From: an uncultured Acidobacteriota bacterium
GTDB taxonomy: Bacteria > Acidobacteriota > UBA6911
DNA length: 64,000 bases
Direction of reading: 5' to 3'
NCBI GenBank assembly: GCA_963827655.1
Contig: CAWHCF010000038.1
Coordinates: 96,001 to 160,000, forward strand
Shown here piece after piece: positions 199 to 34,773 of this stretch (its first letter is position 1; every line of letters begins with the position of its first letter). The notes below the pieces were generated by a model. It saw only the letters and a program-made list of their open reading frames with translations. It searched no databases and had not been told where the DNA came from. A program made the position numbers and the translations under genes.

Positions 199-1496
199 AT
201 GGTTGATCTTGAAAAAGCGCGTGAAAATCAGATAGATTCGCTGTCTATGGTTAGGACGCCCGGGCTGTTCTGGCTCGAGAAACGACTCCTTCGGATGATC
301 CTGCGGCGGCTCGTCAAGCCCGTTCGAGTGGTCCTTTGGAATGGAGAGGAGATCTCAGAATCGATCGATCCTCCGTCAGCCCGAATTACGGTTCGAGATG
401 AAGCAACGCTCTGGGGGCTGATCTTGAATCCCGACCTTCATTTCGGCGAGGCCTACAGCAAGGGTCGAATTGAGATAGAGGGAGACCTGGTCGGCCTGCT
501 TGATACAATCTATCGCTCGAAGACTCAGACCACCGAAGGCCTCGGCCGGAGACTCATGTCTCGCTGGTTCGCCCCGCGGGCCTCGAATACGTTGCGAGAC
601 TCCCGCACGAAACATTCACCGCCATTACGACATTCGGACCGATTTTTATAAGCTCTGGCTCGATTCACAGCTCGTCTACACCTGTGGCTACTTTCCATCC
701 TCCACCCACTCGCTGGAGGCGGCACAATTTGCAAAAATGGACTACGTTTGCCGTAAGGTGCGGCTGCAACCGGGGGACCGTGTCGTGGAAGCCGGATGCG
801 GCTGGGGCGCGCTGGCCCTCCATATGGCCAAGCACTATGGAGTCTCGGTCAAGGCTTTCAACATTTCCCACGAACAGATTCTTTTCGCCCGCCAACGCGC
901 CCGAGAGGAGGGCCTGGCGGCTCGCGTGGAGTTTATCGAAGACGATTACCGGAACATTTCGGGGCGCTTTGATGTTTTCGTTTCGGTGGGAATGCTGGAG
1001 CATGTCGGCTTGCAGTATTACCGCGAACTCGGGAACCGTCATTGATCGCTGTCTGGAAGCGTCGGGGCGGGGGTTTCTGCATTTCATAGGACGCAACCGG
1101 GAGCTCCCTCTGAATGCCTGGATCAGGAGGCGGATTTTTCCTGGCGCCTACCCTCCCACGCTTCGTCAGGTGATGGATATTTTCGAACCGTGGAGTTTTT
1201 GCGTGCTCGACGTGGAGAATCTTCGTCTGCACTATGCCAAGACGCTCGAACACTGGCTGGCTCGGTTTGAAGAATCGGCCGGCCGGATTTGCGCCATGTT
1301 TAACGCGGATTTCGTGAGAGCATGGCGTCTCTATCTGGCTGGATCCCTGGTCGCCTTTCAGACCGGTTGGCTTCAGTTGTTCCAGATTGCGTTCGCTCGG
1401 TTCGATCACAACCAGATTCCCTGGACCCGAGGTTACCTCTACCGGGACGAGTCGGACCCCAAGCAGGAGTCGAAATGGATTCATGCGATGTCGTAA
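199..1496 (+). CDS. Cyclopropane-fatty-acyl-phospholipid synthase family SAM methyltransferase, frameshifted near 605 and 1035
   Basis: Three consecutive ORF pieces carry FGEAYSKG, NIHRHYD..FYKLWLD..YTCGYF, VEAGCGWG, SVGMLEHVG, IFPG and ENLRLHYAKTL, all typical of the CFA synthase family. Confidence 0.9.
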
Positions 1497-2605
1497 TCGT
1501 GGGTGCCGGCCCGGCAGGTTCTGCCTGCGCCTGGAAGCTGATGCGAGCCGGATTGGACGTCGCGCTGCTCGAGAAAGGCAAGTTTCCCCGAGACAAGGTC
1601 TGCGGTGGATGGATCACGCCTCCGGTGCTCGAGGAACTGGAGATCGACCCGCGCGACTATGCGGGCAGCGGGAAAATCTTCCAGCCGATTACCGGTTTTC
1701 GCACCAGCCGCATGGGCGATGCCCAGGTGGAGACGCACTACGGAAAACCGGTCAGCTATGGAATCCGCCGCTTTGAGTTCGACCATTATCTTGCGGTGCG
1801 TTCGCGCGCCCGGCTGATTGAAGGAGTCGCTTTTGGCAGCCTGGAACGGCTGGGCGACGCCTGGCTTGTCAACAATCAGCTCAAAGCCCGGCTGGTAATT
1901 GGAGCCGGAGGTCATTTCTGTCCTGTGGCGCGACACCTGGGAGCGAAATCCGGAGGAGAGGCAATTGTGGCGGCCCAGGAGACCGAGTTTGAAATGGACG
2001 TCCGCCAGCAGGAAGAGTGCTCGATCCGTTCCGAAGTTCCCGAGCTGTTCTTTTGCCCTGACATGAAGGGTTATGGCTGGGCTTTCAGGAAAGGAAGTTT
2101 CCTGAATATCGGTCTGGGACGGCTCGACCGCCGCCATCTCTCCGGTCACGTCTCCGGCTTCATCAGTTTTCTAAAGAGCGCTCGAAAAATTCCGGGCGAC
2201 GTGACGCCGTCGCTATCCGGACACGCTTATCTCTTGTACGGCCTGGGCGGCCGCCGGCTCGTCACCGACGGGATTCTCCTGATAGGGGACGCGGCAGGGC
2301 TCGCCTACTGGCAGAGCGGAGAAGGAATTCGACCGGCCGTCGAATCGGGGTTGATGGCAGCCGAGGCCGTCGTCGCAGCTCGCGGAGACTACAGGGAAGG
2401 ACGGCTGGAGCAGTATCGCAAGATGATCGCGGCGCACTTCGGAAAGTCGGAGCGCGATTGGGCAAGCGGTCTCGCCGGCCTGATCCCTCAATCCTGGATT
2501 GCAGCTATGGCGCGAAAGCTCCTCGCCACGCGATGGTTTTCACGACACGTGCTGCTGGACCATTGGTTTCTACATTCCCACCAGCCGGCTCTTCGCGCGT
2601 CTTAG
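1475..2605 (+). CDS. FAD-dependent oxidoreductase, geranylgeranyl reductase family
   Basis: DVVIVGAGPAG, FPRDKVCGG, GYGWAF and IGDAAG..GEGI motifs. ATG 1475 follows an AGGAG RBS and overlaps the upstream gene. Confidence 0.88.
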   Translation: MDSCDVVIVGAGPAGSACAWKLMRAGLDVALLEKGKFPRDKVCGGWITPPVLEELEIDPRDYAGSGKIFQPITGFRTSRMGDAQVETHYGKPVSYGIRRFEFDHYLAVRSRARLIEGVAFGSLERLGDAWLVNNQLKARLVIGAGGHFCPVARHLGAKSGGEAIVAAQETEFEMDVRQQEECSIRSEVPELFFCPDMKGYGWAFRKGSFLNIGLGRLDRRHLSGHVSGFISFLKSARKIPGDVTPSLSGHAYLLYGLGGRRLVTDGILLIGDAAGLAYWQSGEGIRPAVESGLMAAEAVVAARGDYREGRLEQYRKMIAAHFGKSERDWASGLAGLIPQSWIAAMARKLLATRWFSRHVLLDHWFLHSHQPALRAS

Positions 2606-2630
2606 CGGCTTTCCTGGGAGAGGAGAATGA

Positions 2631-2906
2631 ATGGATGTCGTAGACCTTTTGATCCTGTTGCTGGTTGCGGGGATTTGTGGCGCATTGGGACAGGCGATCA
2701 CAGGTTTCACGCGCGGCGGCTGCCTGGTCTCAATCGCTCTCGGATTCATTGGCGCGGTCATCGGGATGTGGTTAGCACGGAAGCTTGGCTTGCCTGAAGT
2801 ATTTGCTCTGACAGTTGGGACTGCGACCTTTCCGATTATATGGTCCATTATCGGCTCGGCGCTATTTGTGGCGGTCGTCAGCTTGTTGACCCGTTCGCGC
2901 CCTTGA
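2631..2906 (+). CDS. GlsB/YeaQ/YmgE (transglycosylase-associated) small membrane protein
   Basis: 91 aa with three hydrophobic segments, '[12 protein letters not shown]' and 'SIIGSALFV'. AGGAG RBS upstream. Confidence 0.85.
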
Positions 2907-3243
2907 GCGGATAGAGTTCATCGGTCTTTGCGGCCATGATGAAGTCGTTTCGATGTAACCCTCGGATTTTGTGGGTCCACCACGCTACCGAGACGCGCCC
3001 CCACTCGGTGAGGATTGCCGGGTGGTGCCCTTCGCTTTCCGCGAGCTCCCCCACTTTGATCGTGAATGCCAGCGCCTGGGCGAAGTCGCCGAAGTGAAAT
3101 ACGCGTTCCAGCCGCGGAATGTCGTCTCGGACCAGGAGCTCCCAATCGGGAATCTGAGGTTTCAATTCCGCGATCTCCGAATTGGTGACCGTGGGCGCGC
3201 CTTTCCGGCACGCCTCGCATTTTTCCTTGATAAGCATATTCAA
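2878..3243 (-). CDS. phhB: Pterin-4-alpha-carbinolamine dehydratase
   Basis: KCEAC N-terminus, EGHHP and [21 protein letters not shown] motifs. Confidence 0.92.
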
Positions 3244-4371: not shown

Positions 4372-5532
4372 TTACCGCAATTTTGCGAACCGTTCCTCGA
4401 CCAGGTCCAGAGTCTGATCCCTCTTGGGAAAGGCAAACCTGACCAGGCCGCGCCCGAGAGACGGATCCGAGGTATAGAAGCTCGATCCGGGAACGGTAGC
4501 CACCCCGATTTCGTCGATGAGCCAGTAGGCAAAAGCGGTATCGTCTTCGTCGCGGCCCAGGTGCCTGAAGCTTGCCATGGTGTAGTAGGCCCCCTCGGGC
4601 GTGTGGCTCTCAAATCCATGATCGGAGAGTATTTTCATCATGCGCGCGCGCCGGGAGTCGTAGAAGGCGCGGAGCCAGGCGTAGTACGAATCCGGCATGT
4701 TCAAGGCCGCAACCATAGCCGCCTGAAGCGGCGTGGGCGCGCATACTGTGGTGAAATCGTGAACTTTGCGGAGGGCGTCGGTCAACTCCTCGTTCGCAAT
4801 GGCGTAACCGAGCCGCCAGCCGGTGACGGCGAAGGTTTTCCCCATCCCGCAAATAGTGATGGTTCGTTCCCACATCCCGGGCAGAGTCGCCATCGGAATA
4901 TGCCGCCGCCCGTCGTAGACCAGGTGCTCGTAGATCTCGTCGGTTATCGCTACCGTGTCGAACTCGACACAAAGATCTGCAATGATCGAGAGCTCCTCGC
5001 GCGTGAACACTCGCCCGGAAGGATTGTGGGGAGAGTTGAAGATGATGGCTTTGGCTCCGCCCTGGAACGCGGCTCGCAGCTCATCGGGTCTGAAACGGTA
5101 ATCCGGCGGGCGTATCGGAACCCACACCGGAGTTCCCCCTGCAAACGCAATGCCGGCATGGTAGTTCTCATGAGCAGGTTCCAGAACGATCACTCTTTCA
5201 CCGGGATTTACAATCGCGACCAGACTCGCGATGACCGCCTCGGTGACGCCGCAAGTTACCGTCACGTGGCGCTCCGGATCGACACTCTGATCGTAGAAAC
5301 GCCGGCTCTTATCCGCGATTGCCTTTCGCAATGACGGCTGCCCCCAGGTCATGCCGTACTGGTTGTAGCCTTGCCGCATGGCTTCTTCGGCGGCTGCAAT
5401 GACTTCGGCAGGAGGGTCGAAGTCGGGAAAGCCTTGAGCGAGCAGAACGGCGCCCTTCTCGATGGCATATCGAGTGATGGAGCGTATGACAGATTCCTGA
5501 AGGTATTTCAGTCGGTTAGCGGCGTAAGGCAT
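4372..5532 (-). CDS. PLP-dependent aminotransferase class I/II (YbdL/methionine aminotransferase-like)
   Basis: LAQGFPDF, NSPHNPSG, TDEIYEH and GKTFAVTGWRLG (PLP lysine). Start placed at MPYAANR. Confidence 0.92.
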   Translation of the reverse strand: MPYAANRLKYLQESVIRSITRYAIEKGAVLLAQGFPDFDPPAEVIAAAEEAMRQGYNQYGMTWGQPSLRKAIADKSRRFYDQSVDPERHVTVTCGVTEAVIASLVAIVNPGERVIVLEPAHENYHAGIAFAGGTPVWVPIRPPDYRFRPDELRAAFQGGAKAIIFNSPHNPSGRVFTREELSIIADLCVEFDTVAITDEIYEHLVYDGRRHIPMATLPGMWERTITICGMGKTFAVTGWRLGYAIANEELTDALRKVHDFTTVCAPTPLQAAMVAALNMPDSYYAWLRAFYDSRRARMMKILSDHGFESHTPEGAYYTMASFRHLGRDEDDTAFAYWLIDEIGVATVPGSSFYTSDPSLGRGLVRFAFPKRDQTLDLVEERFAKLR

Positions 5533-5695: not shown

Positions 5696-7357
5696 ATGCG
5701 GATCTTGATTTTCTTGACGCTTTCGATACTTGGTCAGTTTCTGTTCTCACAAGGGGGCTCGCAGGGGAGTAACCGGTCACCCTCTCCGATTCGGTTCAGG
5801 AATGTTGCCGGGCCGGCCGGCGTCAATTTTGTCCTGGAGAATCACCCAACGCCCGAGAAGCACCTCATCGAGACGATGCCGGGCGGAGTCGCCACTCTCG
5901 ACTACAACGGCGACGGGTTGATCGATATCTACTTCACAAACGGCGCTGCCATCCCTTCGCTCGAAAAGGAATCACCCAAATACTTCAACCGTCTGTTCCG
6001 GAATGAAGGTGGAATGAAGTTTACCGACGTCACCCAGGAAGCGGCGGTGGCCGGCGCCGGTTATTCGATAGGGGTTGCGGCCGCGGACTACGACAACGAC
6101 GGCGACGTCGATCTTTTCGTCGCGGGAGTGAATCGTAATACACTCTATCGAAATGGCGGGAAAGGAGTCTTTCAAGATGTTACGTCCGGGGCCGGCATCG
6201 AAAGCAGCGTGTGGTCAGTCGCGGGCGGTTGGTTCGATTTCGACAACGATGGCTGGCTCGACTTGCTCGTAGTGAACTATGTGAAATGGTCGCTCGCGCT
6301 CGATCGCTACTGTGGCGACGCGGCCAGGAAACTGCGGGTCTATTGCCACCCAAGATATTTTCAGGCGCTTCCGAACACGCTCTACCGCAATCGGCGAGAC
6401 GGAACTTTTGAGGATGTCTCACTGCGAGCCGGTATTTTGCAGCATGCCGGGAAAGGTATGAGTGCGGCGTTCGCCGACTACGACCTGGATGGCTTCGTCG
6501 ATGCGTTTGTCACAAACGATAACCTGCCCAATTTTCTTTTTCACAATCGTGGAAACGGCGCCTTTGAAGAGACTGGACTCCTGTCCGGAACGGCTTTGCT
6601 CGAGCACGGCAAGCCGGTTTCCAGCATGGGCGTGGATTTTCGCGACTATGACAACGACGGACTCCCCGATATCACTATCACCGCCCTGGCTGGGGAGACA
6701 TTTCCACTATTTCACAACGAGGGAAAAGGGTTGTTCCGGGACGCTACCTACGGCAGCAGGCTCGGTGCTCTGAGTGCCAGGCGAAGCGGCTGGGGCACTG
6801 GTCTGGTTGATCTGAATAATGATGGCTGGAAAGACCTCTTTACTGCCAACGCACACGTCAACGACAAGATCGAACTCTTCGAATCCGGGCAGTACAAACA
6901 GGCCAACAGTGTCTTCGCCAACTTGGGAGACGGGACATTTCGTGATTTCTCGAACAGCGCTGGCGAGGGCTTTGAGATTGCCTGCGCTCACCGCGGGAGT
7001 GCGTTTGCGGATTTCAACAATGACGGCAGAATCGATGTCGTGGTGACGGCGCTGGGAGAACCAGCGGAGGTTTGGGAGAATATCAGCAGTGAAGAAAACA
7101 AATGGCTGATTCTCAAGCTGGCAGGGATTCGGAGCAACCGGGACGGAATCGGGGCTCGGATTCGCCTGGGAAACCAGAGCAACGACATGACGACCAGTGT
7201 AGGTTATGCTTCAGCCAGTCATGGTGGAGTCCACTTCGGGTTCGGGAAGGCGGAGAAGATCGAAAACATCGAAATAAAATGGCCCAGCGGCGCGGTCCAG
7301 GTTCTGAGAGACGTGTCCGGCAATCAGGTGCTCCAGGTCCGCGAACCCGCGCCTTGA
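5696..7357 (+). CDS. CRTAC1 family protein (FG-GAP/VCBS repeats plus ASPIC/UnbV domain), copy 1
   Basis: Signal peptide, repeated DYDNDG.xD Ca-binding motifs, C-terminal SNRDGIGARI...HFGFG...WPSG. Confidence 0.92.
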   Translation: MRILIFLTLSILGQFLFSQGGSQGSNRSPSPIRFRNVAGPAGVNFVLENHPTPEKHLIETMPGGVATLDYNGDGLIDIYFTNGAAIPSLEKESPKYFNRLFRNEGGMKFTDVTQEAAVAGAGYSIGVAAADYDNDGDVDLFVAGVNRNTLYRNGGKGVFQDVTSGAGIESSVWSVAGGWFDFDNDGWLDLLVVNYVKWSLALDRYCGDAARKLRVYCHPRYFQALPNTLYRNRRDGTFEDVSLRAGILQHAGKGMSAAFADYDLDGFVDAFVTNDNLPNFLFHNRGNGAFEETGLLSGTALLEHGKPVSSMGVDFRDYDNDGLPDITITALAGETFPLFHNEGKGLFRDATYGSRLGALSARRSGWGTGLVDLNNDGWKDLFTANAHVNDKIELFESGQYKQANSVFANLGDGTFRDFSNSAGEGFEIACAHRGSAFADFNNDGRIDVVVTALGEPAEVWENISSEENKWLILKLAGIRSNRDGIGARIRLGNQSNDMTTSVGYASASHGGVHFGFGKAEKIENIEIKWPSGAVQVLRDVSGNQVLQVREPAP

Positions 7358-26535: not shown

Positions 26536-27428
26536 TCAGGGGACGTTAGGCGCTTTCTCGGGAATGACCGGGACTGCGGTGATCAGGGGTCCGTTCTGTA
26601 CCAGTGCGACGACCACGAATGTCTGACCCGCCGTCGCCCCCTGGAGCACCATCGACCCCCTGAATGTGGTCCGAGCCGGGAGGAATCTCGTGCAGGAAGA
26701 TCGCGATCTGGCCATTTGCTGCAAGGGGTTCAGTTCAGCGGGCGTAATTGCAGCGTCCGCATCGTTCCAGTTCTCGTTCACGGTAGTCAGCCTGAGACTG
26801 ATAGCCGAAGCATTAGGGTTCGCGATGGCAAAGCCGACGAAGCGCGCTGCGGCAAGATCATTGTAGACCGGAATCGTGGCAGCCGAAATGAGGTTGCGAC
26901 GACAGAACACCGGCGGCCGTCGCTAATTGGTTTCCTACTGACTGTTGGAAGGTGGCTACGCCCGCGGCATTTCCGCCAATATTCTCATACCGGGCCCAGC
27001 CAGCCCTCAATGGATCGGTCGCCGAAACTGGATTGGCGATCAGTGTCCGGGTGCCGCCTGAGGGAACCGACACAGCCAGTGCAGAAGTAACCGTCCCATC
27101 GATATTGGCATTGATTGGCACTGCCGTTCGCCCCGGTAATGGTAAGAGTGCCATTGACAGTCGTAGCTCCAGTGTTCACGATCGAAAAGATCGTGTTCCA
27201 GCCTGCGCCCAGGGCCACTTGGCCGAAGTAGAGACTTGTGGTTGTTTCCGCCCCTATCGGACCGGGATCGGTAAGGTTGCTGAATGTAGGCTGCACCGTG
27301 CGCGTGTTTCCCAGGTAAAGTACCTCGTCACTCTGGGCGTACAGCGCGGGCGCCATTACGAAAAGAATCGCGACAAGAATCGCCGATTTTGCAAGTGTGA
27401 TGCTCGTAGGTCCTGAAGTCGAACGCAT
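26536..27428 (-). CDS. Secreted Thr/Ala-rich beta-strand hypothetical protein, frameshifted (at least 2)
   Basis: Signal peptide (..APALYAQ), YFGQVALGAGWNTIFSIVN, AGWARYE and GFAIANPN across three ORF pieces. Confidence 0.6.
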
Positions 27429-27616
27429 GCTAGCTCCCCCTCTTAGAACGGGCTCATCTTAGGAACGTCTGCACAGTATGGCTCAAAGAACCGGGGTGCA
27501 TCTTACATCCCACCCCTTGGTCGAGTCAACCTCATAAGCGCAAAGACGCCAAGACGACAATTTTCTTAGGCGCTTAGCGAAACGTTCAAACCAACATGTT
27601 GTCGTTCAGAAGGGGC

Positions 27617-27645
27617 CTTCGTTCGGGGCGAAGTCCCCGAACGAA
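27617..27645. terminator. Stem-loop downstream of the TMTC-like gene, flanked by family C repeats
   Basis: TTCGTTCGGGG-cgaagt-CCCCGAACGAA, flanked by GCGCAAAGACGCCAAG (~27540) and CTGGCGTCTTTGCG (~27660). Confidence 0.45.
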
Positions 27646-27683
27646 CCTTAGCGCCCTGGCGTCTTTGCGGTTGAAAAAACAGG

Positions 27684-29527
27684 TTAGGGTTTTGCGGTCA
27701 TCACCCGCCGGAGTTCTTCAATCCGTCCCTTGTAGCGTCCATCCCGGTCATTTGAAGCCAGCAGGCGCAGCTCTTCCTCGGCTTCCGCGAACCGTTTGTC
27801 GCCGACCAGGGCATAGGAGAGAAGATACCTGATCTCGAGAACATCCGGCTTCTCGGATTTCAGATTCTCGAGTAATACCCGGGCCGAGCCGTAGTCTTTC
27901 TGCTGGAGCTGAAGGGTGGCGACGGTCTGCCGCGCCGGCCAGTACTCCGGCTTCAGCCGGATTGTCTCCCGAAACTCAGCCATGGCTTCCGCCAGGTTTC
28001 CCTCAAGGATTGCCAGGTTCCCGAGATTATGATGCGCCTGCCAGTTTGAAGGATCGACCTTCAGGGCTGCGCGATAGTAGCGCCGGGCTGATTCGAATCG
28101 GCCTTCGGTCTGTTCCAGCCACCCCAGGTTGTACATGGCAGGAGCGTGATCGGGACGCAGCTCGAGGGTCCTCAGGAATTCGCTGCGGGCCCGGCCTCGA
28201 TCGACTCCCAGATAGGATACGCCAAGGTTGTAACGAACCCGGGCCTTACCCGGGGCTTTCATCACCGCGTCCGTCCAGAGGCGGACATTGTTCCCCCACA
28301 AGGAAAGTCCGCTTTTTCGATGCTGCGGCGTATCCCACCAGGAGAAAAAGCGCGCAGATCGCAAACGCGGCCTCGCGCCACCTGCTGGTCTTGAGAATGC
28401 TCCCCACGACAGCGATGAGCGCCAGAGCCAGGACAATCGAACCCGTGATCATGGGAAGGTAAAGCCTGTGTTCAAACATCAGATCCGCGCTGGGAATGAG
28501 AGAGGAGGTGGGGGCAAGGAATATAAAAAAGGCCAGAACCAGGAAAGAGGTCGAGGGCGACCAGGTCCGTAGCCTCACCGCCACGGCCAGCACGGTAATC
28601 AGAAGCAGCGCGCAGAACCAGAAATAGCTCGACCGGGGCGAGACGGCCATGAAATCATGGTCCACGGAGAGGCCTGCCGGCCAGAGCACGAGCCGCAAAT
28701 AAGTCACTAGAACGGTCACCTGGCTGGTCAGGTAGCGCAGCGGGCCGCTTTGCAGCAAGCCCACGGTACGATCTCCGATGCTATAGAGGTTGTAGAGAAT
28801 GTAAGCGGCGCCGCCAAGCGAAAGGGCGCCCAGCGCCACAAGAAACCGGCGGACGGCGGGCGAACTCCTGAGGGGCTTGGGTTCTTTCTGGTAGCACCAG
28901 CTATAGGTCAGCAGCACCAGGGGGAGGACCAGGGCGGATTCCTTGCTGGCTGCGGCAAGGATGAAAAGAAGGCCGGCAAGCAGAAGAAAGGGACCTCGAC
29001 GCCGCGGCTCGCTCCGACCAGACGAAGGCGCTGATCGCTGCGATGGTGAAAAAAGCGGCTAGTAGCGTGGAGCGTTGATAGATGTAATTAACGGCGTGGC
29101 TTTGAATCGGGTGCAACGCAAAAATGCCGGCAGCCGTGAACGGCAGCCAGCGCCGGATCATCATGTTCGACAAATCTGATTTGGCCGCACACAGGAGGCG
29201 AACCAGAAGATAGATGCCAAGCGCGTTCGCCAGGTGGACGATCAGGTTAAAGAGGTGATACCCCGCTGGATTCTTTCCCCCCAGCCGGTAATTCATGAAG
29301 AGGCTTAGATAAGTCAGCTGGCGGCTCTGTGAAGGTTTGAGGAGGAAGAGAGGATCGCCGGGTTCGGTCACCTGCGTGCTTGCCAGGAACAGGGCATCGT
29401 CAAAGTGAAACGGGTTTTTCAGGCAACCCCAGTAAGCCCACAGCGTCAGGACCAGGAGCGGCGCGATTTCCGCAGCGCGCCATATCGAGTGCGGATTGTA
29501 GGTTGCAAATTGCCGGTCGGTAGCCAA
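27684..29527 (-). CDS. TMTC-like GT-C membrane glycosyltransferase with C-terminal TPRs, frameshifted near 28990 and 28310
   Basis: NPFHFDD, GYHLFNLIVH, FALHPIQSHAVNYIYQR, KES, LSVDH and EHRLYLP, followed by TPRs. Confidence 0.82.
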
Positions 29528-29607
29528 CGCAGGACTCTTTCTCGGTTCCGGTCTTCGCGGTAGACGACAACAGCAGGATCGCCCCGAAGACGCCAGGACA
29601 ACAGGTT

Positions 29608-31407
29608 ATGCAGCAGCACAGACCGAAAATCAAGGCCGGAGGAGCGTCGCGAACGCCGGGAGTGTCACCGGTGCCGGCGATGTTTTCGCCGTCGCCGGGT
29701 CTTGCTTGTGCGGCTCTCGTGCTTGCGACCTTTCTTGCCTACGCCAATTCGATAGGCGGTGAATTCGTCTTTGACGACACTGTCATCATCCAGGGAAATA
29801 CAGCCATTCAAGGGTTGGACGGGGCCCACCTTAAAGAGATCTTCGGCGGGCATTACTGGAAGGCGGTAGAAAGGCAGGGTGGCCTGTACCGCCCTGTCGT
29901 CATGCTGACCTACGCTATCAATTATGCGGTGGACGGCGAAGATCCAGCGGGTTACCACCTTTTCAACGTGGTCCTGCACGCGCTCAACGGCATCCTGCTC
30001 TTCTTCCTGCTCGAGGAACTCTTCTCGCGGCGCCCTCTGTCGTTTTTGAGCGCGCTGCTCTTTATCCTGCACCCCATTCGCACCGAAGGAGTGGCATCTA
30101 TTGTAGGACGCGCGGAAAGCCTCTCAGCTTTCTTCATTCTGGCAGGTTGGTGGGCGTATGTTCGGCAGCGCAAAGAAGGCGGAGCCCGGTGGTTGGCGCT
30201 GTCATTAGTGTCGTTTCTCCTTGCTGTCCTTTGCAAAGAGAGCGCGTTCTCATTTATCGCCCTCCTCCCGCTTACCGATTTTTTGCTGGGCGGAGGCAAG
30301 ATTGGCGGATTGCGTCCGGCTCTGATCCGCTATGTCCCTTATGCCGCGCTCCTGGCGTTGACCCTCGCCCTTAGAGTGAAAATCCTGGGCGGCGTGATGC
30401 CTCTCTATATCAATCCTAGTTCGAATCCTCTGGTAAATGCCGGCGGCTGGTCCCGTTTCTTGACCGCGACCTGGGTTTTTGGACGCTACCTCTGGCTGCT
30501 GATTTTCCCGCTCCAGCTTTCGGCGGATTACTCATTCAATGCAATCCAGCCTGTGACCGGGCTTTTTTCGTGGCGTGCCCTGGTATCGCTGGCGGCCCTT
30601 GTCCTGCTTCTCCTCGGCACGGTGATTTCAGCGCGCCGGGCTCCGGTTTTCTTCTTCTGCGGCTTCGTTTTTTTCTCTTCTTTCGTCCTGACCTCAAACT
30701 GGTTGCGTCCGATCGGAACGATCATGGCGGAGCGGCTCCTCTATTTCCCGTCCCTGGGGTTTACCTGCGCCCTGGCGTTTCTCCTGTGCGAAGGCTTCGA
30801 ACGGACCCGATGGCGAACTCTCGCCCGGGTGGGTTCGCTGGTTCTCATCCTGGGGTACACCGTCAGGACCCTGGATCGCAATTTCGATTGGAAGGACCAC
30901 TACGCTCTTTTTGGCAGTGCGGTCCGAGCTTCGCCCAACAGTTCGCTGGCCCAGGCGAACTATGCCTCGATCTTGTTGAATGTGAAGAACGATGCGCGTG
31001 GGGCGATCGAGCACGCCCTCGAGGCCATCAGAATTTTGCCGGAAGATCCTGCGGCGCACTATACCCTGGGTGAAGCATATATGCGGGTCGGTGAGCGAGA
31101 GCGCGCGGCGGAAGCTTTCCAGGCAGTGGCGCAGCTGGCGCCGCGCACCTCGGGCGGGGTTTCGGCCCTGCGAAGGCTGGCGAGCATCCGGGAGGCGCAG
31201 GGTGATACGAGCGCCGCTATTTCGGATAACGAGAGACTTCTCGAGTGGCGGCCGGCGGATATTTCGTCATACCTGGCTCTGGGGCGCCTTTACGGGAAGG
31301 TGGGACGTTGGGATCGCGTGAAAGAGAGCCTGGAAAAGGCCAGGCAACTGGCGCCTCAAGACCCGGCCGTGATCCAGGCCTGGCAGAAATTCTCGCGCGG
31401 GCTGTGA
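29608..31407 (+). CDS. TMTC-like (DUF1736) GT-C glycosyltransferase with C-terminal TPRs
   Basis: FVFDD, YRP, YHLFNVVLH, LHPIRTEGVASIVGRAE, CKES, LSADYS and AERLLYFPS, followed by TPRs. Confidence 0.9.
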   Translation: MQQHRPKIKAGGASRTPGVSPVPAMFSPSPGLACAALVLATFLAYANSIGGEFVFDDTVIIQGNTAIQGLDGAHLKEIFGGHYWKAVERQGGLYRPVVMLTYAINYAVDGEDPAGYHLFNVVLHALNGILLFFLLEELFSRRPLSFLSALLFILHPIRTEGVASIVGRAESLSAFFILAGWWAYVRQRKEGGARWLALSLVSFLLAVLCKESAFSFIALLPLTDFLLGGGKIGGLRPALIRYVPYAALLALTLALRVKILGGVMPLYINPSSNPLVNAGGWSRFLTATWVFGRYLWLLIFPLQLSADYSFNAIQPVTGLFSWRALVSLAALVLLLLGTVISARRAPVFFFCGFVFFSSFVLTSNWLRPIGTIMAERLLYFPSLGFTCALAFLLCEGFERTRWRTLARVGSLVLILGYTVRTLDRNFDWKDHYALFGSAVRASPNSSLAQANYASILLNVKNDARGAIEHALEAIRILPEDPAAHYTLGEAYMRVGERERAAEAFQAVAQLAPRTSGGVSALRRLASIREAQGDTSAAISDNERLLEWRPADISSYLALGRLYGKVGRWDRVKESLEKARQLAPQDPAVIQAWQKFSRGL

Positions 31408-31409
31408 TT

Positions 31410-33001
31410 CTACTGGTGTAACTCCTTCCTCAACCGATCCACGGAGCGTCGTGTCTCAGCCAAGTCCTTCTGCCACTGTGTGTTGGTGGGGTCGTGTGCA
31501 GCTAGCCGCTCCGCGATGGCAAGGTCGTCCTCGAATTCGCGTAGTGCGTCCGCCAGCCGGCCCCAGGCTTCGTAGACCCGCCCGACGCAGTTGTGCGACA
31601 CCGACAGGTCGCGCTGCCAGCGTGTGTTGTCCGGGTCGCGCTGTGCGAGCCACATTATGATTTGCTTATAGGCCTCGAATTCATTCAGCGCCTCGGCCAG
31701 CCGGCCCTGAACTTCGTAAACGCGACCGACGCTGTAGTGCGACACCGACAGGATGCGCTGCCAATTTGCGTTGTCCGGGTCGCGCTGTGTGAGCCGCAGC
31801 ATGATCTGCTTGTAGGCCTGGAATTCGCTAAGCGCCTCGGGCAGGCGTCCCTGGGCCTTGTAAACGTTCCCCACGGAGTAGTGCGACATCGACAGGTAAC
31901 GCTGCCAGACGGTATTGTCGGGGTCGTGCTGGGTAAGCCGCAACATGATCTGCTTGTCGGCCTGGAATTCGCTAAGCGCCTCGGGCAGGCGTCCCTGCCT
32001 TTCGTAGACGTTCCCGACGCGGTAGTGCGACACCGACAGGTCGCATTGCCAGGAAGGTGTTGTCCGGGTCGCGCTGTGTGAGCCGCAGCCTGATCTGCTT
32101 GGCGGCCTCGAATTCGCGGAGCGCCTCCGCCAGTCGGCCCTGGGCTTCGGAGATGGAGCCGACGCAGTCGTGCGCTGATGACAGTTGCCGTTGCCAGTCG
32201 GTGTTGTCCGGGTCGCGCTGTGTAAAGCGTTTCGCAACTTGCTCGAAGGCATGATATTGGTCCAGCGCCCCAACCAGATTTCCCTTTTCCCTAAGGATGT
32301 CTCCCAATTGGGCACGGGCGTCCATTTCACCCGGCTCGTCTTGAAGTTCATGAAACAGCTTTACTGCTTCTTGTGCCAATTCCTCAGCTTTTTGGAGGGG
32401 AAGGCCGCCATGACGAATCAAGCCAACGCAGACCAGGGACTGAGCGCGAGCCAAGCGAGCCAATTGATCGGTGCCAATCAACTCTTGAAGCGCCACACCG
32501 AGCGCCTGCAATGGCTCATAGCGTCCCGCCTCGTGCCACTCCCTCCAGAGTCGAACCAATTCGTCCGCGGCTTGGTCCGGCGCAGCCACCAACCGGTGAT
32601 AAATTGCCTCGACACGCTGGTGGGGCTCCTCCCCTCCGAAACATCTCCTGGCTCGCGTCGGAGAGTTCGCGAAGCCGGTTGTGCGGTTCTCGCGCCATTT
32701 CAGCTCGCAATACTCGTCGTGTGGCTTCGTGGACGTTACAGCCACCGCGCGCAGAGAATGCGTTCTACCATCGGCAGCTCGTTCGGAGCTTTTCCACCCA
32801 GGCGCTGGCGGCTGCCTCGTCAGTTTCCATCAGGGCAGCAAGGATCTTGGGGGTAAACCAGTGTGGCACCGAGGCGGCTTCGAGGGCTGGGCGGAGTCCG
32901 GGTTCATGGGCGGCCAGCACGATGTCCACCGTGGCCAAGGTAAGCTTCTGTGGGTCGCCCTGTGCGGCTTGAAGTCTCGTGATGGCGTCTTCAAAATTCA
33001 T
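31410..33001 (-). CDS. Winged-helix plus TPR-array protein (sensor half of a split STAND/NLR-like system), several frameshifts
   Basis: N-terminal AASVPHWF..LPMVE..NVHE..LR (WHD/MHD-like), then EAIYHRL, then about six 48-aa repeats of the form RDPDNTxWQRxLSVSH..VG.VY..QG. Confidence 0.72.
31480..32230 (-). repeat. Intragenic 144-bp tandem repeats (48-aa TPR-like units)
   Basis: The DPDN-coding motif recurs at 31485, 31629, 31773, 31917, 32062 and 32206 (spacing 144, 144, 144, 145, 144). Confidence 0.9.
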
Positions 33002-34209
33002 TGCGCGGGGTCAGGGCTCGGGTTGGTTCGCAACCCCCGCACCATGGTCTCCAGTAGAGCGCTCACCTTACCGGGATCACCGCCGGTTGCCAGGGTGAGT
33101 GCTTTCACGTAGTCGGGCTTCACGTCCGGGCATTGCCATTTGCGCTGGCTGTATTCGAGCCAGTCGTCGACTCGCTGGATCGGCTGCAGGTCGTGGACTT
33201 CAGTAAGTGACTGCCAGGAATGCTTCCCGTGCTCCGGTATCTGCTGACCGCCAATGACGATGATCACGCCCGGAGACCGGTCCAGTCGCGGCAGCAACTG
33301 GCTCTCCAGCCATTTCTGAGCGTCCGATGATGCTTGCTCGTAGGTGTCGAAGACCAGCACGAGCGGCGAGGAGAGCTGCTGAAGATCGGAGATCAGAAGA
33401 TAGAATCTGGCCGTGCCACTGGCCGCATGAGCGTGCCGCAGAATTTCCTGGCCGAGATCCAAACGCAACGTTTCGAACAGGTCGTCCAGTAGCGGACAAC
33501 CTTTGAAGTCCAGCAAAACAGTGGGCAGCTTCGAGTGACGGGCGTAAGCGAGCAGTTCGGCGAGGAGAGCAGTCTTGCCGGTGTTGCTGGCGCCGCGCAA
33601 CAGGAGAATGCGATGCGGCGACTGGTTCGTGATCATTTTCTTGAAGAGAGCGAATTCGTCCTTACGGTCAGCGAGCTGCCAGCGGTATTCGACGCTCGGA
33701 CGGCCAGCGGATAACCCGCGGTTGGGGCGGAGGAACTACGATCGGCTCCGAACCGCGCAACCAGGCAAGGAGCTGGGCATAGCCGGCCTCCGCGTTGAAA
33801 AGCGTGGTAGCGTTTGAGCTGGTGCGGGATGTGGTCCTGGTCCGCCAGTTCGAAGAGGATGACCCGGACTCTCTCGTTGAAACCCGGCCTGGTCGAAGAT
33901 AAACTGGCGGATGGCGGCGGCTTCGCAAGCAGCGCCGAGCCCGGTGCCGGGTGCCTGGTTCCCTTCGTAGCGCTGGCTGTAGATTTCTGTGCACGCCACC
34001 AGCACCAGCTCGGCTTCTTTGACCTGGCGCTCGGACCATTGAGGCCAGCCCTCGGGTGGCCCGCCCGGCAGCATGTCGCGGTCGAGGATGACCGTCACGC
34101 CGTCGGTCCGGAGCCGGTCGGCCAGCGCGTGGACCCGCTCTTTGTGCTTTTCGCTATCGTGACTGTAGCTGATGAAAACCCGGCGCACAGCTTGAGTGTC
34201 TGCTATCAC
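32998..34209 (-). CDS. SEFIR/TIR-domain plus STAND-type P-loop NTPase fusion, frameshifts at ~33700-33880
   Basis: RVFISYSHDS..V.ALADRLR.DGV.VILD..GWPQW (SEFIR/TIR). The NTPase frame reads LADRKDEF, Walker A GASNTGKT, Walker B LVFDTYE and GxP motif TGGDP. Confidence 0.78.
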
Positions 34210-34308: not shown

Positions 34309-34773
34309 TCACCCTGGTCCATGAAGGGTCACGAAGGCTCGAAGACTCCAAGGATCGTAGGCCCTCGTGAACAGGAGGGCGAGCGCGAAGTTGATCGCGT
34401 GCCCCGCAAGGCACAAGGGACACGGCGTCTTGATTATGAAGAAAAGCGAGTAGATTAAATAAACCCCCAGCGCTACCGTAAACCACGCTACAACCACGAG
34501 CATACTGAGCAGCACCGGATCAAACAGCAGGTTTGCGAACAGCAGGACAAGAATCAAAAGATAATAAATCACGCCTAGCAGCGAATTGGGCACGCCAAAT
34601 ACCCGCGCGAATCTCGTGTTCAAGACCGACTGGCAGGTGTGTTCTTTCATGCTGCAGAAGGCGGGCATGATCGAGTTTTCAGCCTGAATGACGCCGTAAT
34701 AGACCAGAGTAAAGTAGATCGAGATGTAGAGCCCGGCGGCGGACAGCGCGGCGATCAGGATTTCGGCTTGCAT
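34309..34773 (-). CDS. Vitamin K epoxide reductase (VKOR) family membrane protein
   Basis: C..TCQSVL, FGVPNSLLG and CPLC redox motif. Confidence 0.88.
   Translation of the reverse strand: MQAEILIAALSAAGLYISIYFTLVYYGVIQAENSIMPAFCSMKEHTCQSVLNTRFARVFGVPNSLLGVIYYLLILVLLFANLLFDPVLLSMLVVVAWFTVALGVYLIYSLFFIIKTPCPLCLAGHAINFALALLFTRAYDPWSLRAFVTLHGPG

Follow-up and report, generated by a model that had tools for sequence, protein, structure and literature searches.

Immune receptors of the STAND/NLR type are understood as single chains, in which the NTPase is kept closed by the sensor and the winged helix of the same protein. The TIR domains of plants are NADases that are activated by NOD-driven oligomerisation. 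SEFIR and DUF4062 domains are described, in the available text of two reports, as defence effectors that deplete NAD+ (10.1101/2024.02.11.579819; 10.64898/2026.09.04.749371). Here, two adjoining genes are described on the minus strand of a DNA stretch of 64,000 nucleotides from an uncultured Acidobacteriota bacterium (contig CAWHCF010000038.1, positions 96,001 to 160,000), which as a whole is called the window. Gene 1 encodes a SEFIR domain followed by a P-loop NTPase with its helical domain, and gene 2 encodes a winged helix followed by a TPR-like sensor. The pair is, with good probability, a conserved two-gene conflict module of the STAND/NLR type, probably directed against phages, in which the nucleotide-binding switch is divided over two polypeptides.

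Neither gene is named, and the pair is not covered, by any PADLOC or NCBIfam model. No description of a STAND protein cut between NTPase and winged helix was found in the literature searched, which included the available text, supplements aside, of PMC7159879 and PMC13581612. According to its available text the latter, a census of STAND proteins from 2026, kept for its sensor analysis C-terminal regions of at least 400 residues, corresponding to 34,990 of 178,641 proteins, and a split of the present kind would therefore fall outside that analysis; in the same text 'split proteins' are mentioned only in the methods, for Avs7/Dsr1. The parts of the two genes in the window are as follows.

32998..34209, minus strand: gene 1, SEFIR-NTPase; about 400 residues if read through three one-base frame breaks, with a GTG start at 34209 and a TGA stop at 33000-32998
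33760..34209, minus strand: SEFIR (TIR-like) effector domain, from Pfam, PADLOC and PDB profiles
32998..33690, minus strand: P-loop NTPase module (nucleotide-binding domain and helical domain), from Pfam, alignment and the AlphaFold2 model of a homologue; the protein ends one helix past GxP
32998..33001, minus strand: ATGA junction, gene 2 ATG (33001-32999) over gene 1 TGA (33000-32998), from the sequence and the alignment to homologues
31410..33001, minus strand: gene 2, with hairpin, winged helix, helical arm and TPR-like sensor; about 528 residues if read through four frame breaks, with the stop at 31412-31410
32905..33001, minus strand: two-helix N-terminal hairpin of gene 2, residues ~1-32 (helices 3-12 and 17-28 in the AlphaFold2 model)
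32700..32904, minus strand: winged helix of gene 2, with PHWF at 32866-32855 and NVHE at 32737-32726
31413..32350, minus strand: TPR-like repeat array in units of 48 residues (Pfam TPR_2 1e-13, TPR_12 8e-11)

The split between the two genes was compared with related loci. Scans of metagenome and genome collections gave four loci, and a fifth, paralogous locus was taken from one of those genomes.

L003: gene 1 of 395 residues, ending at 2081; gene 2 from ATG at 2071; overlap of 11 nucleotides
L004: gene 1 of 404 residues, ending at 1990; gene 2 from TTG at 1994 or ATG at 2021; gap of 3 or 30 nucleotides
L007: gene 1 of 395 residues, ending at 4924; gene 2 from ATG at 4917; overlap of 8 nucleotides
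L008: gene 1 ending at 777; gene 2 at 787-3114, complete with 775 residues; gap of 9 nucleotides
L024: gene 1 of 391 residues, ending at 6076; gene 2 from ATG at 6077; gap of 0 nucleotides

Wherever a related locus extends downstream of the NTPase gene, as it does in all five, gene 1 is closed by a stop codon 5-15 residues past ALLE(T/A)M and a gene-2 homologue adjoins it, so that the two genes occur together in each of them and a single open frame across the position of 33001 was found in none. When intact homologues are aligned, their stop and first Met coincide with the stop and the Met at the junction of the window. The relative frame of genes 1 and 2 varies between the loci, being identical in L008 and L024; as both this frame and the geometry of the junction differ by locus, a shared sequencing artefact and programmed frameshifting are argued against. 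Six further loci (L002, L005, L006, L009, L010 and L011) were left out because of contig ends or other architectures, such as a fused AAA_16-TPR protein of 946 residues in L010; in the genome of L009 a single-sequence query matched nothing like gene 2. The sources of the named loci are one Pyrinomonadaceae and one Bryobacterales metagenome-assembled genome. The latter holds two diverged copies of the module, L024 and L008, with gene-2 N-termini that are 46% identical, and these pairs are natural material for tests of partner specificity or sensor swaps.

The wider NTPase family ends at the same place. An exhaustive HMMER search gave 827 representatives at E<=0.001; the number falls to 325 at 1e-10 and to 57 at 1e-30. 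Among 153 proteins (the 150 listed of the 827, together with P0001, P0003 and P0004), 129 reach query position 222 or beyond, i.e. the end of the NTPase, and 122 of these terminate at most 30 residues beyond the match. Four relatives of the NTPase piece with 519-521 residues (P0001-4; identified by a word-indexed search and 59-65% identical) end where gene 1 ends (...ALLETMMLGLxEESGD). When the N-terminal 230 residues of gene 2 were used as query, 20 proteins were identified, 18 of which are stand-alone TPR proteins of 435-626 residues; the stand-alone homologues begin 0-6 residues from the position of the window Met, with the exception of P0171. The union of NOD and sensor in one polypeptide, a feature of STAND proteins, is absent from nearly all of this NTPase family, with four fused forms as the only ones found.

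That the junction at 33001 is one more indel error, and that the true gene encodes one SEFIR-NTPase-winged helix-TPR chain like Avs, is scarcely credible. Seven other one-base breaks do lie in the same 2.8 kb, the reads leave the junction uncovered and 4 of the 129 relatives are fused, but every intact locus has a stop and a start, in five different junction geometries, and the great majority of the family stops there (122/129). In addition, the window Met coincides with the first Met of the stand-alone homologues, and gene 1 ends before its stop in the tail RTNPSPDPAQ, a short variable tail being found at this place in unfused homologues as well. On this evidence it is concluded that the two-gene split is genuine and conserved in relatives, and that the junction is different in kind from the frame breaks of the window. 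The initial annotation, which had noted the ATGA overlap and had argued that the split was real, is borne out on both points.

Gene 1 carries two features of the STAND superfamily, namely the pattern of Walker A (GxxxxGK[ST]) and Walker B (hhhhD with further acidic residues behind it) and, after it, a helical domain with GxP. On the minus strand LADRKDEF is followed by Walker A (GASNTGKT, 33594-33571), Walker B (LVLVFDTYE, 33363-33337) and GxP (TGGDPG, 33084-33070). In the first piece of the gene, Pfam identified SEFIR (3.2e-10, 40.9 bits with a cut-off of 23) and TIR_2 (1.6e-9), and PADLOC identified bSEFIR at 6.5e-27, limited to profile positions 38-129 of 412. Profile matches to the PDB were a bacterial SEFIR domain (5y8f, 1.3e-14) and the SEFIR domain of Act1 (6.8e-10). 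The NTPase piece matched AAA_16 (5.1e-8, 34.0 bits, just over the cut-off of 32.6) and, under the cut-off, NACHT (0.0018). Apart from weak partial matches, the NTPase and gene 2 are without a fitting PADLOC model, the Avs2 model reaching 0.002 over residues 34-75 (42 residues); in NCBIfam gene 1 matched no family. The initial annotation had described gene 1 as a SEFIR/TIR domain joined to a complete NTPase core running from 34209 to 32998. All quoted motifs and the Pfam domains were recovered, but this span is not one open frame under translation table 11. Indeed, neither gene is, and both are read-through reconstructions.

When read through, gene 1 of the window is 49-57% identical to gene 1 of L003, L004 and L007 (tblastn). 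All seven residues that are invariant in 36 gene-1 homologues are preserved, i.e. Asp36, Glu89, the Ala of LADR, the Walker A Lys, the Walker B Asp, and a Gly and a Pro after strand 4. The two SEFIR invariants, D36 and E89 of L003 gene 1, are found in the window as the Asp of ILDRD and the Glu of CEA. Going by position only, this Asp presumably corresponds in place to the mutated D40 of bSEFIR. The Gly and Pro of GxP are at least 90% conserved in the alignment of gene-1 homologues. A scan of the minus strand upstream of gene 1 for promoters and terminators yielded nothing.

Gene 2 starts with MNFEDAITRLQ and continues with VPHWF, NVHE and TPR-like repeats. Motifs, Pfam TPR families and the AlphaFold2 model of a homologue agree that its N-terminal part holds a winged helix, which is preceded by the hairpin, and that it continues into a TPR array, as had been read from the letters alone. 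NCBIfam gave only sub-threshold matches of TPR type. The residues invariant in 22 homologues include P46, H47, F49, W87, N88, V89, H90 and R94. At 32740-32738 the window has the Cys codon TGT where 22 of 22 homologues have Trp (GWNVHE); TGT is one base from TGG, and the codon is either a substitution error or a true change at an invariant site. In the DNA the TPR array appears as a tandem repeat of 144 nucleotides with 4.8 copies at 31529-32223 (Tandem Repeats Finder). A related contig omits 118 bases at 31620-31739, inside this repeat array, which suggests that the number of sensor repeats varies between strains, or that the assembly has collapsed there. The protein-atlas features of the gene-2 N-terminus are nearest to clusters with WHD_MalT, which is a lead only. 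These clusters contain short stand-alone proteins with only a MalT-type winged helix (218 residues) or with a winged helix and MalT TPR (347 residues), which hints that winged helix-sensor proteins lacking an NTPase may be spread more widely than the present NTPase family.

Seven of the 129 family proteins are longer, and in four of them the NTPase is followed by a C-terminal extension that resembles gene 2, with 31-48% identity.

P0033: fused, 647 residues, SEFIR
P0046: fused, 918 residues, SEFIR
P0074: fused, 715 residues, TIR
P0044: fused, 983 residues, trypsin-like

These four natural fusions identify gene 2 as the part that follows the NTPase in the single-chain version, in line with the initial annotation, which had recognised in the start of gene 2 what would normally follow the NTPase in one chain. 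In P0044 the NTPase is joined directly to the winged helix, and the initial 27-40 residues of gene 2, which P0033, P0046 and P0074 retain, are missing. The hairpin therefore appears to be an extra element that goes with the split.

The N-terminal domain of the family is variable. Pfam families were assigned in 93 members from the 150 listed representatives, after short fragments and proteins lacking a sizeable N-terminal part had been dropped. SEFIR was found in 45 and TIR_2 in 43 (overlapping), Trypsin_2 in 5, Trypsin in 4, DUF4062 in 4 and PNP_UDP_1 in 2 members; CHAT, Pkinase, EAD5, PIG-L and SMEK_N occurred once each, and TPR was limited to two fused forms. NACHT, nSTAND3, nSTAND5 and NPHP3_N matched 5-8 of the 93 members at E<=0.001. 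P0001-4 have a caspase-like N-terminal domain in place of SEFIR, matching an EACC1-type caspase model below its cut-off, and the fused P0044 shows a weak match to the Avs1b protease domain in NCBIfam (23 bits with a cut-off of 1500). The suggestion that variable effectors precede the same NTPase is thus supported by Pfam, while a constant partner for versions other than SEFIR is seen only through the fused trypsin-like and TIR forms. In P0086 (438 residues) a TIR-like stretch was noticed by eye in the sequence after the NTPase instead of before it.

The choice of N-terminal domains also bears on whether the pair could serve regulation or signalling rather than defence, as a STAND like MalT or AfsR in which SEFIR is merely a protein-interaction adaptor. 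Such a role would suit AAA_16 as the best Pfam model of the NTPase, the proximity of the gene-2 N-terminus to WHD_MalT clusters and the lack of a defence island, and SEFIR was first proposed as an interaction domain, according to the available text of the report on bSEFIR (10.1101/2022.05.11.491447). It is nevertheless very unlikely: a DNA-binding output domain is absent, the swapped domains (SEFIR/TIR, trypsin-like, caspase/CHAT, DUF4062, PNP) are typical of conflict effectors, the TIR-type Glu is invariant and the distribution is sporadic.

Structures of both chains were predicted with AlphaFold2 from homologues. Gene 1 of L003 (pLDDT 92.4) was modelled as a TIR-like fold, a disordered linker (151-156), a P-loop domain and three closing helices; the helical domain with GxP is seen in this model as helices at 343-388. 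Residues 1-330 of gene 2 of L008 (pLDDT 93.0) gave two N-terminal helices, the winged helix and helical repeats; the winged helix consists of helices 34-43, 51-58 and 62-72 and two strands (78-81, 86-89), and its wing ends in WNVHE. In Foldseek searches of the PDB, the gene 1 homologue matched RPP1 best (1.1e-7), followed by 6mfv_A (7.1e-7, rmsd 5.6 over 232 columns), and further matches were Orc1/Cdc6, the bacterial SEFIR 5y8e, Avs3 (8dgc_A, 9.1e-6) and MalT. The best match of the gene 2 homologue was the single-chain STAND-TPR protein 6mfv_A (2.2e-5), the others being plain TPR proteins. As 6mfv matches both the NTPase of gene 1 and the N-terminus of gene 2, both chains map on one solved single-chain protein.

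The two chains, whose joint modelling had been proposed in the initial annotation, were then predicted as a complex from residues 160-395 of L003 gene 1, residues 1-250 of L003 gene 2 and ADP. The interface score ipSAE was 0.79 (0.76-0.80 in three runs), while three controls reached 0.00 at best; at least 96% of the contacts are shared between the runs, and the pLDDT of the partners is at least 89. Of 80 solved complexes 58 attain the mark applied, as do 2 of 110 mismatched pairs, a calibration that is only rough here, with own alignments and ADP included. The modelled interface has two parts. In the first, the hairpin of gene 2 (residues 6-37) lies on helices 363-388 of gene 1. In the second, His53 (of PHWF), residues 82-90 and His96-98 (of WNVHE) of gene 2 lie on the P-loop (203-205 and 209), on 230-237 and on 288-292 of gene 1. 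The MHD-like His is placed on the second chain, in a winged helix with the invariant WNVHE, and His96-98 are predicted to contact the P-loop region; in the window Cys stands for the Trp. The complex model supports the likeness to STAND proteins rather than demonstrating binding. Together with the conserved adjacency and the fusions, it favours the reading of the pair as a two-chain NLR, which the initial annotation had put forward.

The following mechanism would fit this arrangement. Chain 1 would unite the effector, here a SEFIR domain that is TIR-like and presumably NAD+-depleting, with the P-loop NTPase and the helical domain as far as the GxP helix. Chain 2 would begin with the hairpin, docked on the final helices of chain 1, and continue with the winged helix and its MHD-like His (WNVHE), a helical arm and the TPR-like sensor. 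At rest, chain 2 would clamp the ADP-bound NTPase of chain 1 and thereby hold the SEFIR domains apart. An invader protein bound by the TPR array might then loosen or displace the winged helix, nucleotide exchange would permit oligomerisation of the NTPase, and the clustered SEFIR domains would hydrolyse NAD+ and abort the infection.

The modelled interface, which covers the face of the P-loop, would also suit a different division of labour, in which chain 2 is a dissociable, antitoxin-like inhibitor or guard, and chain 1, by itself always competent to oligomerise and kill, would be kept in check until a phage factor titrates or degrades chain 2. Separate but tightly coupled genes, and a docking hairpin that is absent from the fused P0044, are consistent with this. 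It is regarded as unlikely, given that STAND proteins canonically contain such a winged helix, with its invariant His, as an internal element and that the fused forms keep the order of the parts; it departs from the mechanism of a divided switch solely in that chain 2 would dissociate upon activation.

The frame breaks of the window copy were placed by frameshift-aware alignment, for gene 1 with three intact homologues (L003, L004 and L007) and for gene 2 with four. Gene 1 is read in frame 0 from the GTG at 34209 to ~33885, in frame 1 to ~33794, in frame 2 to ~33700/33694 and then in frame 0 to the TGA.

33879..33885, minus strand: break A, one surplus base in or by a TTT run, frame 0 to 1; same place with three homologues
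33791..33801, minus strand: break B, one surplus base in or by a TTTT run, frame 1 to 2; alignment to homologues
33691..33700, minus strand: break C, in the linker between SEFIR and NTPase, one surplus base, frame 2 to 0; alignment, and a related contig lacks exactly the surplus base, at 33694
32776..32786, near 32782, minus strand: break D, one base missing, AAA would fit where AA stands; four homologues
32758..32766, near 32762, minus strand: break E, one surplus base; alignment to homologues
32650..32692, near 32659, minus strand: break F, one surplus base, the site shifting between 32656 and 32692 by homologue; alignment
32049..32060, near 32055, minus strand: break G, one surplus base; alignment, and a related contig lacks one base at 32059

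With the frames followed through, genes 1 and 2 contain no in-frame stop. Read evidence came from short contigs of two soil-metagenome runs (X1 and X2), which cover 0.10 and 0.07 of the window; 32444-33067, including the junction, lies outside this cover. The contigs are 88-99% alike to the window and therefore derive from relatives rather than from the strain of the window. Near break A, a related contig lacks a base at 33902 (~20 nucleotides away), and a clipped end implies TT for TTT at 33882-33880. Related contigs also lack 2+2 bases at 33719 and 33722. None of the contig pieces listed spans break B (33791-33801) or has a base missing or added there, and the mean word depth in X1 is 1.53 at 33692-33795 and 0.55 at 33796-33899. 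Elsewhere in the same genome, rpoB, rpoC, dnaE and valS each lie in two open frames (C8:77700-86155; C29:121375-123997; C29:159420-162483), and uvrA and gyrA are whole. As these broken genes are essential, the assembly evidently carries indel errors genome-wide. Four of the seven breaks of the locus are located at AACG on the coding strand (33878, 33796, 32783 and 32764), which has 12 such sites in 2.8 kb (post hoc binomial ~1e-4). AACG as a general error signature was dropped, because 0 of 5 housekeeping breaks occur at AACG.

The flanking genes are housekeeping-like and encode VKOR, an epimerase, a TMTC-like TPR membrane protein, a pyrroloquinoline quinone dehydrogenase and Fe-S/NrfD redox proteins. 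On the minus strand at 27684-29527, three overlapping open reading frames (208, 223 and 250 residues) in three frames resemble one membrane-plus-TPR protein. In tblastn against 27400-29700, the neighbouring protein of 599 residues (29608-31407) matched the N-terminal piece only, and the suspicion is that the three frames form one protein like this neighbour, with two more frame breaks. In the VKOR gene (34309-34773, minus strand), one short contig of each run (X1, X2) has an extra C behind 34358, and the C-terminus of this gene in the window may therefore also be frame-shifted. The module has no paralogue in its own genome. Among plasmids, matches were confined to the SEFIR domain, and none spans 80% of gene 1.

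Several results weigh against the interpretation as a conserved and functional two-chain module. The neighbours of the locus form no defence island. With the NTPase as query, the system was absent from 60 relatives, save for one weak match (7.4e-4) in a frame of 736 residues with another architecture, and with the gene-2 N-terminus as query 0 of 400 further genomes of the phylum matched; together with the lack of a paralogue this indicates a sporadic distribution. Co-occurrence of the two genes rests on five loci, and the gene context studied excludes members with caspase, DUF4062 or PNP domains. The success of the complex prediction may owe much to solved single-chain STAND proteins, which the halves of a split STAND are expected to resemble. 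The window copy itself has seven frame breaks in 2.8 kb, compared to ~4 in the ~20 kb of six housekeeping genes, neither at break A nor upstream of break C do the related contigs yield a clean frame, and 2 of the 21 gene-2 positions that are invariant in 22 homologues are altered (Trp to Cys before NVHE, and Ala to Val).

The last points bear on whether the family is a real two-gene system of which the window holds a dead pseudogene pair. The break density, about tenfold that of the six housekeeping genes, would be explained in this way, as would the two altered positions, one of them the Trp beside NVHE, and the single copy of a system not found in the relatives searched. This is a serious alternative but somewhat unlikely, given that essential genes are frame-broken too, so that the assembly makes indel errors, that no in-frame stop appears when the frames are followed, and that all seven invariant gene-1 residues are kept. 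Furthermore, related contigs lack one base at or near three of the seven breaks, and the frame-broken appearance of 27684-29527 and the extra C behind 34358 suggest a regionally poor consensus. For the seven frame breaks, assembly error is considered more likely than decay, and the locus needs polishing before conclusions on the activity of the window copy are drawn.

A family that is cut at the boundary of helical domain and winged helix would allow autoinhibition, nucleotide exchange and oligomerisation to be studied with separable parts, and the split offers a route for the shuffling of effectors and sensors, which might then be exchanged independently. It also suggests that short 'sensor-less' STAND proteins are worth checking for a sensor in the next gene. 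As a tentative and more general proposal, for which the chances appear somewhat less than even, a large share of the 'sensor-less' prokaryotic STAND proteins may be two-chain NLRs, in which the pocket is closed by the winged helix of a separate sensor subunit, activation follows its loosening or exchange, and the genes recombine independently. If this is true, the present NTPase family (827 representatives, ~95% of those examined being split) would be the first worked example.

Compared to known systems, the module resembles bSEFIR (Bacillus sp. NIO-1130; 10.1101/2022.05.11.491447; PADLOC PDLC03957) in its N-terminal SEFIR domain (6.5e-27 for the window and 1.8e-33 for L003). The match to the bSEFIR profile is restricted, however, to positions 38-129 (window) or 39-191 (homologues) of 412, so that its C-terminal half is unmatched by the NTPase, and the partner gene looks obligatory here, whereas bSEFIR is described as a single-protein system in the available text of 10.1101/2024.02.11.579819. 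The plant TIR-NLR RPP1 (7crc/7dfv), the top fold match of the gene 1 homologue, likewise has a TIR-like domain followed by a STAND NOD, but it has a NOD of a different clade, an LRR sensor and a single chain, which makes this a likeness of design and not of membership. The archaeal STAND-TPR protein 6mfv is one polypeptide without an effector domain, and its sequence identity is 11-16%. The order of parts is the same as in the single-chain STAND proteins Avs and bNACHT, with effector, P-loop nucleotide-binding domain, helical domain with GxP, winged helix with a conserved His and repeat sensor. The kinds of effector are also the same, and the fold of the gene 1 homologue matches Avs3. No model of the Avs1-5 families fits, the nearest being Avs2 in PADLOC (0.002, 42 residues), with none in NCBIfam for gene 1 or 2. 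By membership the module is a STAND-type NTPase that departs from the one-polypeptide feature and shares only the SEFIR domain with bSEFIR. In contrast to Avs and bNACHT, its chain is cut between helical domain and winged helix, as in 122 of 129 members of the family, and the second chain carries an extra N-terminal hairpin.

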